From: Candidatus Krumholzibacteriia bacterium
GTDB lineage: Bacteria; Krumholzibacteriota; Krumholzibacteriia; JAJRXK01
Reading direction: 5' to 3'
DNA length: 64,000 nucleotides
NCBI GenBank assembly: GCA_041484665.1
Contig: JBGPIA010000011.1
Location: 82,091 to 146,090, forward strand
Part shown: positions 54,000 through 63,860 of the stretch, in pieces
How positions within the stretch are numbered: position 1 is the first letter of the stretch
How the letters are laid out: every line of letters begins with the position of its first letter
Position numbers and translations under genes: made by a program
The notes under the pieces: model-generated
Told to the model about the DNA's origin: nothing
Databases searched by the model: none
The model's input: the letters and a program-made list of their open reading frames with translations, nothing else

Positions 54000-54200
54000 A
54001 TGGGAATCCGCAGAATGATCATCCGGAAACGGTCGCTCCACGAGCCCGAGCCGACCTCCGACCTGCAAGACCTGACTCCCGGCGACCGCATGGCTATGGT
54101 GTGGCCGCTGACGCTCGAGGCGTGGGCGTTCAGGGGGGACCTGCGTGCTCAGCCCGGATCATCACGACGTCTTGTCCGAGTTCATCGACGGCCAGGTTGA
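54000..54200 (+). CDS. Small hypothetical protein paired with a nucleotidyltransferase
   Basis: TPGDRMAMVWPLTLEAWAF pattern; overlaps the next gene. Confidence 0.55.
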   Translation: MGIRRMIIRKRSLHEPEPTSDLQDLTPGDRMAMVWPLTLEAWAFRGDLRAQPGSSRRLVRVHRRPG

Positions 54201-54594
54201 ATTCCTGCTGGTGGGCGCGTACGCCCTCGCCGCGCACGGGCTGGTGCGCGCCACCGGGGACCTTGATCTGTGGGTGCGTCCGACCGCTGCGAACGCCGCA
54301 CGGGTGGTCGCGGCCCTCCAGCGCTTCGGCGCGCCCGCGGAGCACTTCAGCGCAGCGGATTTCGTCCGGCCGGACTCTGTGGTCCAGGTGGGCGTCGAGC
54401 CCTTTCGCATCGATGTCCTGACCAGCATCGATGGGGTTGGCTTCGAGCAAGCGTGGGCGCACCGGATCTCGGCCTCGATCGAGGGACTCTCCGTTCCCGT
54501 CATCGGACGCGAGGAGTTGATTGCGAACAAACGGGCCACCGGCCGGCCCCAGGATGCCCTCGATGCGCAGCGGCTGGAGCACCTGCGGCCCTAG
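54145..54594 (+). CDS. Nucleotidyltransferase-fold protein (DUF6036-like)
   Basis: LVGAYALAAHG..RATGDLDLWV; LIANKRATGRPQDALD. Confidence 0.85.
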   Translation: MLSPDHHDVLSEFIDGQVEFLLVGAYALAAHGLVRATGDLDLWVRPTAANAARVVAALQRFGAPAEHFSAADFVRPDSVVQVGVEPFRIDVLTSIDGVGFEQAWAHRISASIEGLSVPVIGREELIANKRATGRPQDALDAQRLEHLRP

Positions 54595-54711
54595 CCTCCC
54601 GCGCAGGGCCGCCCGCGTGCCGCGCTCGGGCGCGGCCCGCCCGCCGCGGGCCGGTCGGGCCGTCCGCCGCATCGTCTCCGGATCTCTGGACCCTCGCCCA
54701 GGTCCGGCTCC

Positions 54712-55851
54712 TCAGGTCATCCGCCGTTGCAGCCAGAGGCCGAAGAAGGGGTCGACGAAGCGGATCGACGCGTCCTCCTTCTTGCGGAGCACCTCCCGCG
54801 CGATCAGGGTGCGCAGGTTCTTGCTCACCGTGCTGGGCGAGCCGAGCCCCAGCCGCGTGACCATGCGCTGGCTGTGCAGGCGCTCGGTCTGCCCCCCGGC
54901 CAGGGCCAGCGCCAGATTGCGCTGGAAGGGCGAGAGCTGGTCCCACTGGATCTTGAAAGCGTACGCCTGGGTCTCAAGCACGTGGGACAGCGCGTTGCGC
55001 AGGTCGCTCTCGGCGAGCGTCCGCCGCTCGCGCCCCGCCTCGAACAGCGCGTGGGCCAGCATCTGGACGTAGTGGGGGATGTGCTCCGCCAACTCCAGGA
55101 GCTGGAACACGAGATCGACCTCGATGGACATCCCCGCGTCGCGGAAGCGCTGCTCGATGCCCAGCGCCATCGCCTGGGGAGACACGGGTGCCAGGCGCAC
55201 CGGCTCGGCCAGCTTGTGGAACAGCCCGCGCGGCTCCTGGAAGAGCGTGCGCACGCTGTCGTCGCGGCGCAGCACGAAGACGTAGCTCACCGAGAGATGG
55301 CGGCGGATGGCCGCGGCGAAGGTCTTGAGCAGGTCCAGGTCGGCGACTGCCACGAAGTCCTCGAAATCGTCCAGCACGACCACCAGGGGCCGGCCGCGCG
55401 TCTGCCGCAGCTGGGCCGGCGCCTCGAGGATCCGCTCCAACAGCACGCGCAGATCGCGGTCACGGTCCCACAGATCCAGTTGCAGGCCGGGCCGGCCACT
55501 GCTGGAGATCGTGACGCGCGGTACGAAGCTGGGGACGAGCTGGCGGACGGCCTCCTGCATGGCCTCCACCGTGCTGGTCGGCTCCAGCGTCAGCGCGGAG
55601 GCGTAGACCTCGGCGAAGCGACGGGTGTTGATCGCCGGCGTGAGGTCGGCGTAGGCAGTGTCGATTCCACCGGCCTTGCACTGGGCCAGCGTCGCGAGCA
55701 ACAGGCTGGTCTTCCCGGTGCCGCGCGGAGCCGTCAGGGCGAGATTGCGCCCATCCTTGAGGATCCTCAGGATCTCGGCCTGCTCTGTCTCGCGGCCGAC
55801 CAACAGCGACTCGCTGACCGGGGTACCGAAACGGAAGGGGTTGGCGGCCAT
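54712..55851 (-). CDS. AAA/STAND-like 'archaeal ATPase' family protein with C-terminal winged helix
   Basis: NPFRFG, VGRE.E, Walker A APRGTGKTS, Walker B VVLDDFE, IPHYVQ, FVDPFFGLW. Confidence 0.88.
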   Translation of the reverse strand: MAANPFRFGTPVSESLLVGRETEQAEILRILKDGRNLALTAPRGTGKTSLLLATLAQCKAGGIDTAYADLTPAINTRRFAEVYASALTLEPTSTVEAMQEAVRQLVPSFVPRVTISSSGRPGLQLDLWDRDRDLRVLLERILEAPAQLRQTRGRPLVVVLDDFEDFVAVADLDLLKTFAAAIRRHLSVSYVFVLRRDDSVRTLFQEPRGLFHKLAEPVRLAPVSPQAMALGIEQRFRDAGMSIEVDLVFQLLELAEHIPHYVQMLAHALFEAGRERRTLAESDLRNALSHVLETQAYAFKIQWDQLSPFQRNLALALAGGQTERLHSQRMVTRLGLGSPSTVSKNLRTLIAREVLRKKEDASIRFVDPFFGLWLQRRMT

Positions 55852-55931
55852 TCAGGACTCCCGGGCGCCCGAGGAACCCTCCGGCCTGCTGCCGGGCGTT
55901 TTACCAGAGGGTGAACTACTACAAATGAAAC

Positions 55932-55960
55932 TTGCGTTACGCCGCCTGGTAAAGTATAAA
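55932..55960 (+). promoter_or_regulatory. Sigma70-type promoter
   Basis: TTGCGT-N17-TATAAA with an A-rich upstream element, in a markedly AT-rich patch. Confidence 0.8.
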
Positions 55961-55966
55961 TTCGTG

Positions 55967-56309
55967 TGGTCCTGGGCGGTGCAAGGGCTTCTCCCTTCGT
56001 GGCAAGGGGTTGCTCCTCGCCTGCCGCTGGCCGGACGGTGTGGGGTAGGGGGCGTGGGGCACCTGCTCCGCGCTGGGCATGCCAAGGTCCCTGGGCAACT
56101 GCCCGCTGGATGGAGCAACGCTCCATCCCCCGTGGCGTGTACGAAGAGTAGGGACCCAGACAGTCGGCCGCTCGGGACCGCTAGGTTCGACCGGGGCCTC
56201 AGGGGTGCCAACCCAGGCTGCTGAGGTCCGACGGGTCAAGACGTTCCCGGTGAACGTGGTTAGCCACCGGATAGAGCGGGAGGATGCGCAAGCTCCTCCC
56301 GTTCTTTTT
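55967..56309 (+). ncRNA. Candidate ~340-nt structured non-coding RNA of unknown family
   Basis: Bounded by a promoter and an intrinsic terminator; many hairpins and nested helices; no convincing ORF. Confidence 0.6.
56274..56309 (+). terminator. Rho-independent terminator
   Basis: gagcgggagga / tcctcccgttc stem followed by ttttt. Confidence 0.85.
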
Positions 56310-56346
56310 GCCGCCATGTGGCGTGGTATGCTCCGTGCGTCCCCCC

Positions 56347-57765
56347 ATGCGCATGCCCTGCACCTTCCTTTTCCTGCTTGGCCGGCGGCGCGCCTGCACG
56401 TCTGGCCTGCCGAGGTCCGGGTTCGGGCCAAGGGCCGGGCGCGAGCCCTGGGCCGCACGCGAGCCTTGGGCCGCGCGCGCGCGCTGGGCCGTCCTCGCGT
56501 GGGTGGCGGCGAGCGTGGCGAGTGCCGCGGGCGCGGCCAGTGCGCTGTCACGAACTGCGCGCGCCGCTGACACGCCGCCGCCCGTGCCTGCTGCGGACTC
56601 CCGCGCGCTGGAGATCTCTCGCTCCGGCAAGAGCTGCGAGGAGTGCCACCGCGACCTCACCCCGGTGCTGTTCGCCGCATGGGAAGGCAGTCGCCACGCG
56701 GCGAAGGGCGTCACCTGCCAGGCCTGCCATGGCCGCGATCACAGCACGATCTTCTCGCACAAGGGTGAGGTGAGCGCGCGCGTCTGCGGCGGCTGCCACG
56801 CCAAGCAGGTCGAGGAGTTCGGCCGCAGCCTTCACGCGCAGGCCGCCGCGCTCATGGAAGCCGACCCGAAGTTCCAGCGCCTCAGCCCGGCCGTGGCCCA
56901 GCTCGGATGTGAGGGATGCCACCAGGTGGGGGAGCGCTGGCCCGATGGCAGCGCAGGCAAGTGCAACACCTGTCACAGTGGACATGCGTTCAGCGTGACC
57001 GAAGCGCGCCAGCCCCAGGCGTGCGCTGCCTGCCACGGCGGCCCGGACCACGCCCAAATGGAGATGTGGCAAGCCAGCAAGCACGGACAGCTCTATGCAT
57101 CCGAGACGACGCGAGCGCAGGCGCCTACCTGCGTCACGTGTCACATGCCAGGCGGCACTCACGACACCGGCCGGGGGCTGACGCTGGGCAACGTGGCGAA
57201 CGGCGCGGTGCTCGTGAGCGACACAGCGCCAGTGCGCATGCGCACGATCGCGCCGCCGGCAGCACGCCAGGAGCGCACGCACATGGTCCAGACGTGCCTG
57301 CCGTGCCATTCCTCGCGCTTCGCGGCCGCCAGCTTGGAGGAGGCGGATCAGGTCAAGCGCGAGGCCGACCGCATCCTGGGCGAGGCCGCTACGCTCGTCA
57401 CCGGCCTCTATGATGACGGCCTGTTGCAGCGCGCGACCACCACGCAGGAGGAGCTCGCGGCCTCCGGGCACGCTGCCGGGCCGGCGTTCGTCCTGGGCGG
57501 CGATCAGGTCTATTCCGGGCTGTCGTCTGCGGAGCAGATCTTCTTCGATCTCTACAAGTTCCACCACGCGACGATGTTCAAGGGGGCCTACCATAGCAGC
57601 CCCGAGTTCACGCACAACAGGGGCTACCTGCCCCTGCAGCAAGGCCTCACCGCGCTGCAGCACGAGGCATCGCAGCTGCGTGAGTCCGCTCGCGCACGCG
57701 GGGCCGCAAGCTCGCGCGAGAAACCACGGCGGCAGGCGGGAACCCCCGGAGAGGGCAAACGATGA
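56347..57765 (+). CDS. Octaheme cytochrome c, hydroxylamine oxidoreductase (HAO)-like; start uncertain
   Basis: 8 CxxCH; FSVTEARQPQACAACHGGPDH..MWQASKHG, APTCVTCHM, M.QTCLPCHS match the HAO layout; possible extended -10 TGGTATGCT at 56324. Confidence 0.88.
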   Translation: MRMPCTFLFLLGRRRACTSGLPRSGFGPRAGREPWAAREPWAARARWAVLAWVAASVASAAGAASALSRTARAADTPPPVPAADSRALEISRSGKSCEECHRDLTPVLFAAWEGSRHAAKGVTCQACHGRDHSTIFSHKGEVSARVCGGCHAKQVEEFGRSLHAQAAALMEADPKFQRLSPAVAQLGCEGCHQVGERWPDGSAGKCNTCHSGHAFSVTEARQPQACAACHGGPDHAQMEMWQASKHGQLYASETTRAQAPTCVTCHMPGGTHDTGRGLTLGNVANGAVLVSDTAPVRMRTIAPPAARQERTHMVQTCLPCHSSRFAAASLEEADQVKREADRILGEAATLVTGLYDDGLLQRATTTQEELAASGHAAGPAFVLGGDQVYSGLSSAEQIFFDLYKFHHATMFKGAYHSSPEFTHNRGYLPLQQGLTALQHEASQLRESARARGAASSREKPRRQAGTPGEGKR

Positions 57766-58997
57766 GCGCGATCACCACCAAGCAGGGAGCACGGGCTGCG
57801 AAGCGGATGCAGGCTTCGCGGGGCGCGCCGGCTCCGCTGGGCACGCAGGCTTCGCGGGGCGCGCCGGCTCCGCTGGGCACGCAGGCTCCCAAGCGCACCC
57901 AGCGCCAGGCGGGCGTGGGGCTCTGGAGCGGGCTGCTCGCGGTGTGCGTGGTGGTTGCCGCCGTGGCGGCTGCCGCCGCCGCGACGACCGCCGCACCGGC
58001 TGCCGCCGTCTCGACCCCCGCTGCAGCAGCCAGCGCCTCGTCGGTTACCCCGGCTCCATCGTCAAGCCGCGTGATCCAGTATCGCGGGCCGATGCCGCTG
58101 CTCCCGGATTCGGCCAACAATGGCGAGGTCAAGCTCACCTTCGAGCTCTACCGATCGCCGACCGGGGGCGTTCCGGTGTGGACCGAGACGCGCACGGTGG
58201 TCGCGCACGATCGCTTTGTCGAGGTGGACCTGGGTCAGGTGGAGCCGCTGCCCGACGAGGCATTCGAGAGCCCCTTCCGCTTCCTGTCGATCTGGCACGC
58301 AGCGGTGGAGTTCAAGCCGCGCAAGCAGGTGGTGAGCGTCGCGTATCTCGCGGCCAAGCCGGAGGAGTACGCGGCGGGGCAGGCTGGTGTCGTGTCGACC
58401 GGACGCCTCACCGCAGCCGCCTATGCCGACGCGGGATCCGGTGGGATGACCGCTGGTGTCGCACCCGCCACGGCGGGGGGCACCACCAGCGGCACAGGCG
58501 GCACCACGGTCGGCGGGGTCGGCGGGGTCGGTGGCGGTCTCGCAGGCGGCTCGATGAGCGGCTCAGTCGGGGACGTCGCTGGCGGCACGGCCGGCACCGC
58601 GGCCTCGGGCGCAATGCTCTCGGGCGCGGACAGCGGGTCGGCGTCGCCGCAACCGCCGCCAGCGCCGCTGGGCAGCACCGTCGACGTGGGCGGTTTCGCC
58701 ATCGAGCGCAATCCGCGGTCCCCGACGACCTGGCTGCAGGCCGAGCGTGCCGCCGCGCAGCTCGGCGCGCGCCTACCCACCTTCCAGGAGTGGTACGCCG
58801 CCGTGGACGGTCCGGCGCGGGCGCAGCTCGAGCAGGTGACGGGGCACTACGAATGGGTCATCCCGTGGGTCTACGACCCGCAGATCCACTCCCGCATGGA
58901 AGAGCTCTACCGCGGGAAGCCGGTGGCCTGCTATTACAACGAGCTCAGCCCCCAGCACGATTATCCATACCGGCTGGTGGCGATCCGGGCGCGCTAG
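57762..58997 (+). CDS. Exported hypothetical protein: N-terminal beta domain, Gly-rich linker, C-terminal FGE/C-type-lectin-like motif
   Basis: LTFELYRSPTGGVPVWTET..VDLG; TWLQAERAAAQLGARLPTFQEW; 4-bp overlap with the cytochrome gene. Confidence 0.7.
   Translation: MSAITTKQGARAAKRMQASRGAPAPLGTQASRGAPAPLGTQAPKRTQRQAGVGLWSGLLAVCVVVAAVAAAAAATTAAPAAAVSTPAAAASASSVTPAPSSSRVIQYRGPMPLLPDSANNGEVKLTFELYRSPTGGVPVWTETRTVVAHDRFVEVDLGQVEPLPDEAFESPFRFLSIWHAAVEFKPRKQVVSVAYLAAKPEEYAAGQAGVVSTGRLTAAAYADAGSGGMTAGVAPATAGGTTSGTGGTTVGGVGGVGGGLAGGSMSGSVGDVAGGTAGTAASGAMLSGADSGSASPQPPPAPLGSTVDVGGFAIERNPRSPTTWLQAERAAAQLGARLPTFQEWYAAVDGPARAQLEQVTGHYEWVIPWVYDPQIHSRMEELYRGKPVACYYNELSPQHDYPYRLVAIRAR
57809..57887 (+). repeat. 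Exact 36-bp coding tandem duplication
   Basis: gcaggcttcgcggggcgcgccggctccgctgggcac twice plus a partial copy (QASRGAPAPLGT). Confidence 0.9.
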
Positions 58998-63035: not shown

Positions 63036-63860
63036 CTAGGTCCGCGAATCGGGCGCCGGCGACGGCTGGCAGAGATCGCAGGTGCGGCCCAGCCCGCGTA
63101 AAGCGATCAGCTCCACGGCGGGCGACCGGAAGCCCGTACGCACGGGCTCCTCGCGCATGAGGTCGGTGCTCAGGTATTTCTTGTTGCTGTCGGGGAAGAT
63201 CGTCACGACGACCGACGAGCACCCAAGCTCGTCCTGGGCCTTCAGCGCTCCCAGGAAGTTGGCACCCGACGAGATCCCCACGCCATCACCGTGCCGCCCG
63301 TTCCGACGCCGGCAACGAAGGCATTGGGGACCAGCGAGAGCTGCGCCAGCTGCGACCCGATCTCCGGCCCGGTGGTCAGCTCGTGCGCCTCGCTGTTGTC
63401 CTCGTTGGAGCACTGCCGGGGCAGGAATGCCCCAGGCGTGCGTGCCGCCAGCTCCTCGGCCAGTTGGATACTGCCGAGAAAGCCGCCTTGCTCCACGTTC
63501 ACGAGGTGCACCTGCGCGCCGAGGGAGCGGATGAGGTTGATTCGCTCGGGGCTCATCCAGTGGGGCATGAAGACGGCGACCGGGTGCCCGAGCGCCCGCC
63601 CGATGGCGGCGAATGAGAGGCCGGTGTTTCCGCTCGTCGCCTCGACGATCCACGCCCCCGGCACGAGCACGCCCTTCTGGTAGGCGCGCCGCACTTCGTG
63701 CAGGGCCATGCGGTCCTTGACGCTCTCCGTGAGGTTGAGCGTCTCGGCCTTGGTGTACACCGTGCGCCGCTCGCCGCGGAAAACGCAGTCGACGGCGAGC
63801 ATGGGCGTGTTGCCGATCAGGAAGGTGAGGCCGCGTAGACGCTGGGCGAGCTCGGCGGCG
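63036..63860 (-). pseudogene. Cysteine synthase (PLP-dependent) gene with internal deletion and frameshift
   Basis: [25 protein letters not shown] in one frame; [18 protein letters not shown] in another; the region between them is missing; the 5' end may lie beyond the window. Confidence 0.85.

Follow-up and report, generated by a model that had tools for sequence, protein, structure and literature searches.

A structured RNA of one Candidatus Krumholzibacteriota family and a complementary RNA encoded elsewhere

What kind of RNA lies back to back with an ATPase gene in Candidatus Krumholzibacteriia, and what does it act on? The question arises from a 64,000-nucleotide stretch of assembly GCA_041484665.1 (contig JBGPIA010000011.1, positions 82,091 to 146,090 of the forward strand), referred to here as the window, in which an earlier note made from the DNA letters had proposed, between a promoter and a terminator, either a stand-alone non-coding RNA (ncRNA) of unrecognised class or a long attenuator leader for the downstream HAO-like gene. 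We refer to this element as RNA-A and to the genome of the window, which is 93.65% complete, as G000. The first proposal stands: RNA-A is almost certainly a real ncRNA, with no Rfam match, conservation in 10/10 genomes of its family, covarying helices and a transcript contig lying within it. Its key feature is invisible from the window, and is an unlinked RNA, RNA-B, complementary to one of the RNA-A loops.

The RNA-A gene and its distribution

Homologues, which the earlier note had suggested seeking, were found in 10/10 genomes of one Ca. Krumholzibacteriota family (f1) and in one metagenome contig (L104), giving a set of 11. The transcript (55963–56309, + strand, with a predicted start) is ~345 nt long here and ~270–330 nt in relatives. 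Ahead of it is a sigma70-like promoter of the form TTGC..-N17-TAT..A (55932–55960, +), present as TTGC-N2-N17-TATnnA at constant spacing in 11/11 homologues, with GTAAAG invariant right before the −10 box and with promoter columns invariant in alignments of 10 and of 11 sequences; the TATnnAT form is also found in two tRNA promoters of G000. At the other end is an intrinsic terminator (56274–56309, +), and in 11/11 homologues the 3′ end is a GC stem and then a U-rich run, the terminator sequence itself being freely changed. The elements had been placed correctly at the outset (TTGCGT at 55932–55937, a 17-nt spacer, TATAAA at 55955–55960, the stem at 56274–56304 and T5 at 56305–56309), as had an extended −10-like site, TGGTATGCT, at 56324–56332. 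Both signals are borne out by the conserved spacing and by the recurrent stem and U-run, but not by a strict consensus scanner, which scored no promoter and no terminator at RNA-A, where A is the last base of the −10 hexamer and the terminator stem is bulged. Upstream of the promoter is an imperfect, operator-like palindrome (55898–55917, no strand assigned), which lies 14 nt 5′ of the −35 box in every homologue, with fixed spacing in 11/11 loci, and is palindromic at 3–7 of 8 positions. Another copy of this palindrome occurs in an AT-rich intergenic stretch (G000:C6:206198-206213).

A DNA search of 61 genomes recovered the RNA-A stretch from 9/9 same-family genomes, and 5/51 others gave 23–42-nt pieces only. 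A two-motif RNA-A pattern matched exactly in 10/10 family genomes; 10/198 non-family genomes matched it only at 2 mismatches, and a control pattern matched 9 genomes. Scanning the GTDB collection gave nine loci, of which five are titled Ca. Krumholzibacteriota or -ia, two are titled 'uncultured bacterium' and have the same RNA, and two are chance matches. The two-motif matches L096 and L098, from other phyla, were rejected as chance, being by eye without the promoter, the closing helix P1 described below and the terminator. A metagenome scan with the neighbouring ATPase as query gave at least 599 candidates and, among the matches listed, at least one locus, L104, in which RNA-A has its promoter, both loops and terminator. 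Viral contigs contained no match for the RNA-A pattern, the RNA-B pattern or the ATPase; RNA-A was absent from the plasmid collection and RNA-B from the phage collection.

In 11/11 loci, RNA-A and the ATPase gene stand back to back. In the 10 loci besides the window, RNA-A is followed by rpe or by a metallophosphoesterase gene, encoded on the opposite strand. RNA-A is therefore not an attenuator leader for the HAO-like gene, as these downstream genes are convergent, pointing towards the terminator, and 0/10 homologous loci carry the cytochrome, which is found only in G000. At the syntenic position in other families, the phosphoesterase was found in 1/5, with an aconitase-like neighbour, and no RNA motif was seen.

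One public metatranscriptome run contains a single 278-nt contig spanning 55983–56260, ~97% identical to the window and at a depth of 3.7, with no cover elsewhere in 54000–58500. The contig is confined to RNA-A, as expected of a discrete transcript, but shows neither ends nor strand: a single shallow contig set speaks for presence in an RNA library, not for ends, strand or level, and uncovered flanks are no proof of silence. Of the seven listed differences between contig and window, three are in stems and keep pairing (56121, 56131 and 56180) and four are at unpaired positions of the fold.

Fold of RNA-A

The 5′ end of RNA-A is paired ~200 nt downstream by the closing helix P1 (5′ strand 55966–55980, 3′ strand 56167–56181, both +), which encloses a domain of 203–226 nt in all homologues. 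Over the inner 9 bp of P1, 97/99 cells are paired (11 sequences), with a double change in 6/9 pairs, and in the transcript contig a U.G pair becomes U-A at 56180, the pair being kept. Within the enclosed domain is the long hairpin P3 (56028–56084, +), whose core stem (56038–56049 with 56062–56073) has 88.9% of cells paired and a double change in 7/12 pairs, with 0/500 shuffles as high. For P1 and P3 together, in a MAFFT alignment of 10 sequences (A5; G006, close to G004 and G009, was excluded), 94% of cells are paired and 12/20 pairs have a double change, against 33–48% of cells paired in slid controls. Covariation, which the earlier note had named as a check, is thus present; that 0/500 shuffles scored as high is not a probability, because the structure was derived by RNAalifold from alignment A5 itself and the sequences are related.

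The 353-nt RNA-A stretch folds at −185.5 kcal/mol with a folding z-score of −2.69, and 0/100 shuffles were as good. The unusual stability holds for the whole stretch, but without the terminator the z-score is only −1.04 (−1.7 to −3.8 in homologues), so that fold stability alone is weak evidence. Covariation, rather than stability, is the real evidence for the RNA-A structure. G.U pairs outnumber A.C combinations by 11 to 0 in P1 and by 30 to 2 in P3, which places RNA-A on the plus strand and disfavours an alternative in which it is a leader of the ATPase gene on the minus strand; folding z-scores do not discriminate the strand.

At the tip of P3 is loop 1 (56050–56061, +), a 12-nt, G-rich loop that contains GCGUGGGGCA, invariant in 11/11 homologues, and is a candidate seed for C-rich leaders. 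The second loop is carried by hairpin P5 (56247–56270, +), just 5′ of the terminator, and occupies 56252–56265. The remaining parts are more fluid: P2 (55983–56027, +), a set of hairpins in the minimum-free-energy fold, varies in length and sequence between genera; P4 (56086–56156, +), a multibranched domain of the same fold, is partly common to genus g2 and reshaped in g3 and g4; and between P1 and P5 are lineage-specific linker hairpins (56182–56246, +; 20–73 nt in homologues). P2, P4 and this linker are reshaped between genera; invariance is limited to the promoter and the two loops. Most helices listed in the note recur in the minimum-free-energy fold (aaggg/ccctt, gtggca/tgccgc, ggtccct/agggacc with its two inner hairpins, ggcctcag/ctgaggtc and ccggtg/caccgg). 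The pairing ggcgtggggc/gctccgcgct, with 67.8% of cells paired and a double change in 0/10 pairs, gives way to the alternative register that forms the 12-nt G-rich loop, and gtcgg/ccgac is incompatible with P1, the main closing helix, which had been overlooked.

Known RNA classes

In 54500–57500, Rfam 15 gave two matches, both at E>3 and outside RNA-A, and none in RNA-A at E≤10; nine homologous loci gave six matches, the best at E 0.43, all far under the gathering threshold. The reported lack of transfer-messenger RNA (tmRNA), RNase P and signal recognition particle (SRP) hallmarks also holds, all three RNAs being on other contigs of G000: ssrA at C23 (163 bits; ARAGORN found no tmRNA in the window), rnpB at C5 (RF00010, 273 bits) and SRP RNA at C2 (RF00169, 79 bits), the last two models having no match at RNA-A. 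For 6S RNA the Rfam negative is weak by itself, because RF00013 missed the true G000 6S RNA at E≤1 (G002 likewise has no RF00013 match). A divergent 6S RNA is nonetheless rejected: RF00013 places 6S elsewhere in 8/9 relatives, and a profile built from five 6S RNAs of the family detects in G000 only C2:212054-212232 (−), at E 3e-20 and in the same gene context.

Nor is RNA-A a messenger for a small protein or type I toxin. Open reading frames (ORFs) of ≥10 amino acids (aa) differ in length and sequence across the 11 homologues, with no consistent small ORF, in line with the initial view that there is no credible one. A tracrRNA is likewise rejected, as the loop-2 complement is single-copy and not arrayed, and no Cas gene is present in the parts of the RNA-A and RNA-B flanks that were read. 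A Y RNA, considered for both RNAs, finds no Ro60/TROVE (PF05731) match in the 93.65% of G000 that is represented.

RNA-B

Searching G000 for complements of loop 2 led to a second copy of a loop-2 12-mer on contig C4. This 12-mer has exactly 2 copies per genome in 10/10 family genomes, against 0.042 expected per genome, and a control pattern gave 1 match in total. In every case the second copy occupies a hairpin loop, the hairpin being 74–77 nt long and having a TAnnnT box 6–7 nt upstream and a terminator downstream. In G000, this RNA-B is 77 nt long (C4:77597-77673, loop 77626–77639) and, together with its promoter and terminator, present in 10/10 family genomes, spans C4:77584-77709 (L115:1459-1584, +). 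A convergent M16-peptidase-like gene has its 3′ end beside RNA-B, which is oriented such that the transcript is the complement of loop 2. Judged by the conserved promoter and terminator, RNA-B is probably made as a discrete terminated RNA.

RNA-B folds as a single hairpin with a large apical loop (z-scores of −1.6 to −3.6 in four tested). Its pairs are nearly all invariant, so that the fold is not proven by covariation, and a cloverleaf and a rod are not told apart, as no pair covaries. It has no Rfam family: 10 loci gave only sub-threshold matches, the best on terminators. A DNA search of 208 genomes gave 10 full matches and one 27-nt piece, and a covariance model found RNA-B in 9/151 genomes, in both searches in family f1 only; RNA-A, RNA-B and a close ATPase orthologue have a common distribution, limited to f1 among the 208, 151 and 61 genomes searched. 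Identity across the family is 85–99% for RNA-B and 62–72% for RNA-A, a difference that suggests that the RNA-A loop tracks RNA-B. Conserved like a tRNA and of no known class, RNA-B merits study whatever RNA-A does.

Probable pairing of loop 2 with RNA-B

RNA-A and RNA-B are on different contigs in 10/10 genomes and are thus not cis-encoded. The cognate duplex has 14–19 contiguous base pairs, and 140/140 cells are paired over 14 loop-2/RNA-B positions. Variation at the edge of the duplex keeps the pairing: one position is G-C in 5, G.U in 4 and A-U in 1 genome, and the next is A-U in 8 and G.U in 2. Apart from the opposite strand of RNA-B itself, loop 2 is the sole Watson–Crick complement of ≥11 nt to the RNA-B loop in G000, and cofolding gains 7.5–14.6 kcal/mol in 10/10 genomes. 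The housekeeping RNAs all pair with loop 2 far less well than RNA-B does, and pairing with 16S helix 18 was rejected, the 16S RNA of G000 having three mismatches there. Taken together, the complementarity makes it probable that RNA-A and RNA-B pair in the cell. RNase III is present in G000 and Hfq was not found there.

Candidate partners of loop 1

No conserved small RNA (sRNA) with a C-rich region was found as a third partner complementary to the invariant G-rich loop 1: the 10 genomes contain 51 exact 11-mer sites, with no site common to all (30 loci, and all 11 sites of G000, were inspected). The site at G000:C17:61310 was rejected as not conserved. A terminator loop with a 13-nt loop-1 complement, after a zinc-ribbon-domain gene in L133 (G004) and L141 (G009), was rejected as absent in G006 and G000. 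Loop 1 may mimic the 23S P-loop, which it resembles; the assembly yielded no copy of that 23S segment.

Mildly in favour of messenger leaders as partners are three genes, for which the names scpA, mglA and M23 come from reading the proteins (the Pfam matches are Arf/Ras, for the GTPase, and TPR). The leader of a TPR gene located after the mglA-like GTPase has, in its first 60 nt, a loop-1 complement of ≥7 nt in 7/10 genomes and of ≥8 nt in 6/10, against a background of 17/143 and 6/143 promoter windows; the leader can form 15/16 pairs in G003 and 15 in G007. Upstream of scpA, GCCCCAC is present in 6/10 family genomes and 0/20 outgroup genomes (only 5 of which have a promoter there), and the M23 peptidase leader has a loop-1 complement in 4/10 family and 0/4 outgroup genomes. 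To the idea that loop 1 targets leaders we give appreciably less than even odds. Among the scpA matches, those in L239 (G012) and L252 (G029) have one in-frame TGA.

The ATPase and other neighbouring genes

Divergent from RNA-A is the gene for a 379-aa AAA/STAND-type ATPase with a C-terminal winged helix (54712–55851, −), with Pfam matches to nSTAND1, AAA_16 and ATPase_2. Its orthologues are 60–62% identical in 9/9 family genomes, and homologues at 22–30% identity occur in 10/51 others. The predicted model (pLDDT 81.9) has its best fold match with PDB 2qen (TMq 0.67), followed by Cdc6/Orc1 and 2fna; the protein is closest to Pyrococcus PABY2304, Cdc6/Orc1 and SSO1545, within a widespread family, and lacks an NCBIfam name and matches no defence system convincingly. 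The 10 distant homologues have no such RNA upstream, and several have their own palindromes over the gene start, which points to autoregulation and, here, to control of the RNA-A promoter, whose palindrome the winged helix may bind. In L085–L093 the palindromes overlap the ATPase start region and differ between groups, as possible autoregulatory operators. In L085, ~150–250 nt 5′ of the ATPase gene on the opposite strand and before a divergent gene, is what we take to be a TPP riboswitch-like element.

On the other side of RNA-A, between it and rpe and only in G000, are genes for an HAO/hydrazine-dehydrogenase-like multihaem cytochrome and a 411-aa protein (56284–58997, +), the latter without a Pfam or NCBIfam match. 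Beyond the ATPase gene is an ABC-F gene, which directly follows it in 7 relatives; here a 149-aa ORF with a weak AbiEii-like match (54145–54594, +; E 0.007) lies between the two. Farther away is a presumably cysteine-synthase-like sequence (63036–63802, −), split over two reading frames by a frameshift in the gene or an assembly error.

Proposed mechanism and alternatives

We give roughly an even chance to a model in which RNA-A is a two-loop riboregulator on a stable scaffold, with RNA-B as a trans-encoded antisense RNA dedicated to it. Each RNA would be transcribed from its own promoter as a discrete terminated RNA. Loop 2 would then kiss the apical loop of RNA-B and zip to the 14–19 bp for which complementarity is observed, and on further extension CCGG-containing stems would swap while the basal stem of RNA-B stays closed. 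The duplex, a likely RNase III substrate beside the RNA-A terminator, would sequester both RNAs, which would titrate each other 1:1 without Hfq. Loop 1 might serve as a second binding site, most likely for C-rich 5′ leaders such as those of scpA, the M23 peptidase gene and the TPR gene that follows mglA, and the divergent winged-helix ATPase could set the level of RNA-A through the palindrome.

Several points count against this model. The 10 family genomes represent 4 genera and are not independent. Cognate pairs are not more stable than non-cognate ones (permutation p 0.72), and there is almost no intermolecular covariation because the core of the duplex is invariant; the binding, its direction and the mutual inactivation are deduced from complementarity, and kissing hairpins can stall near 6 bp, according to PMC10798244. 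At 93.65% completeness, the absence of Hfq is not proven. No conserved mRNA target of RNA-B was identified, and the invariance of RNA-B over its whole length calls for a protein partner or a function that the model leaves out. As for loop 1, GCCCCAC shows no special enrichment behind G000 promoters, following 5/141 of them against 2.1 expected (rank 777 of 6650), its reverse complement also 5; C-rich leaders are general in G000; and the three candidate genes were each chosen on one genome, the scpA signal beyond G000 coming from one genus.

The far higher conservation of RNA-B suits a one-way sponge, in which RNA-B does the work as an sRNA, by way of a protein or of numerous imperfectly matched mRNAs, and RNA-A only soaks up RNA-B and other C-rich sRNAs, loop 1 binding these RNAs and not mRNA leaders. 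RosA and RsaI, in hosts without a working Hfq hub, set G-rich regions against C-rich sRNAs in this way (PMC8216469, PMC8383071). As the searches gave neither a conserved third RNA that complements loop 1 nor an RNA-B target (19 candidate sites with G.U allowed, in G000 alone), we regard this alternative as unlikely.

About as unlikely is a stable ribonucleoprotein (RNP) of RNA-A, RNA-B and the ATPase, in which RNA-B is permanently docked on loop 2, making a two-piece RNA, or guides maturation, RNase III removing the 3′ tail of RNA-A and freeing a P1-closed, 205–225-nt core in tracrRNA-like fashion. The shared distribution of the three components, the near-constant length of the P1 domain with its separate tail and the tRNA-like conservation of RNA-B, stems included, would all fit. 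The transcript contig also stops within loop 2, at 56260, but contig ends cannot reveal RNA ends. The interior of RNA-A is freely rearranged between genera, unlike that of catalytic or structural RNAs, RNA-B is unlinked, and distant members of the widespread ATPase family lack an RNA of this kind upstream; together these make an RNP improbable. More speculative still is a complete scheme in which RNA-A, RNA-B and the Cdc6/STAND-like winged-helix ATPase form a new family-wide RNA machine, the near-invariant 77-nt RNA-B docking on or maturing a 210-nt scaffold, loop 1 addressing the C-rich leaders of genes for the cell cycle and polarity (scpA, mglA-linked TPR and M23 peptidase), and the ATPase controlling or loading it; it seems doubtful as a whole.

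A reading without any pairing, in which the 12-mer serves as a DNA site or is left over from an ancient inverted duplication of RNA-B, and RNA-A, an ncRNA with no connection to RNA-B, works through proteins (as a decoy or a 6S-like RNA, for instance), draws on the resemblance of P5 to the reverse complement of the whole apical hairpin of RNA-B, which in G008 and G001 continues into the terminator, as a duplication would give. The loop alone is invariant, however, while its flanks diverge over 4 genera; all differences between RNA-A and the RNA-B complement within the 14 positions are G.U-compatible or compensated; both copies are in loops of transcribed-looking hairpins; and 6S lies elsewhere. 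We consider this reading quite improbable. Antitermination, in which RNA-B binding makes RNA-A read through, sense into the cytochrome gene here and antisense to rpe or the phosphoesterase gene in relatives, is very improbable, for although loop 2 is 4–9 nt 5′ of the terminator and the G001 cofold invades it, pairing generally stops short of the terminator, the 5′ end of RNA-B beats control terminators in only 2/10 genomes, and the downstream genes are convergent and varied.

Comparison with known systems

RNA-A and RNA-B are two new, uncatalogued RNA families, although the type of control proposed for the two-loop riboregulator is itself known. Two RNA families and a probable interaction have been deduced here from sequence alone, in a phylum for which our search found no RNA literature: for ncRNA of Krumholzibacteriota and Latescibacter, it returned nothing matching RNA-A or RNA-B, and supplements of RNA-motif surveys lay outside it. 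The pair is directly testable in vitro. If the pairing is real, the family-wide invariant loop–loop complement would show hard-wired RNA–RNA control in a lineage in which Hfq was not found.

Like 6S RNA (RF00013), RNA-A has its 5′ end paired ~200 nt downstream and a long terminal hairpin, but it has a multibranched interior, not a central bubble, and an extra 3′ domain. The tracrRNA:crRNA pair is a trans RNA–RNA duplex and an RNase III substrate, and the duplex of RNA-A and RNA-B could be one too; here the complementary 12-mer is single, not arrayed, and the flanks of RNA-A and RNA-B that were read contain no Cas gene.

The geometry of the pair, two hairpins able to kiss and then extend into their upper stems, is that of the plasmid antisense pair CopA–CopT (PMC10798244). 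CopA itself is cis-encoded and fully complementary and targets a plasmid mRNA leader, whereas RNA-A and RNA-B are ncRNAs from unlinked loci of the chromosome, match only across the apical hairpin and are invariant instead of co-diverging.

Closest in organisation are RosA of Bacillus subtilis and RsaI of Staphylococcus aureus, stand-alone sponges of ~200–350 nt with their own promoter and terminator (PMC8216469, PMC8383071). RNA-A likewise stands alone, is complementary at one site to an sRNA from another locus, and has two separate binding regions and a G-rich tract; the transcription-factor site at the promoters of RosA and RsaI has as its counterpart at RNA-A only a putative palindrome. RNA-A has no sequence or Rfam match to them and is not homologous. 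Its predicted main contact also differs, being a perfect 14–19-bp loop–loop duplex and not a G-tract against a C-tract; its sites are loops on a covarying multihelix scaffold, and its partner is a single, near-invariant hairpin.
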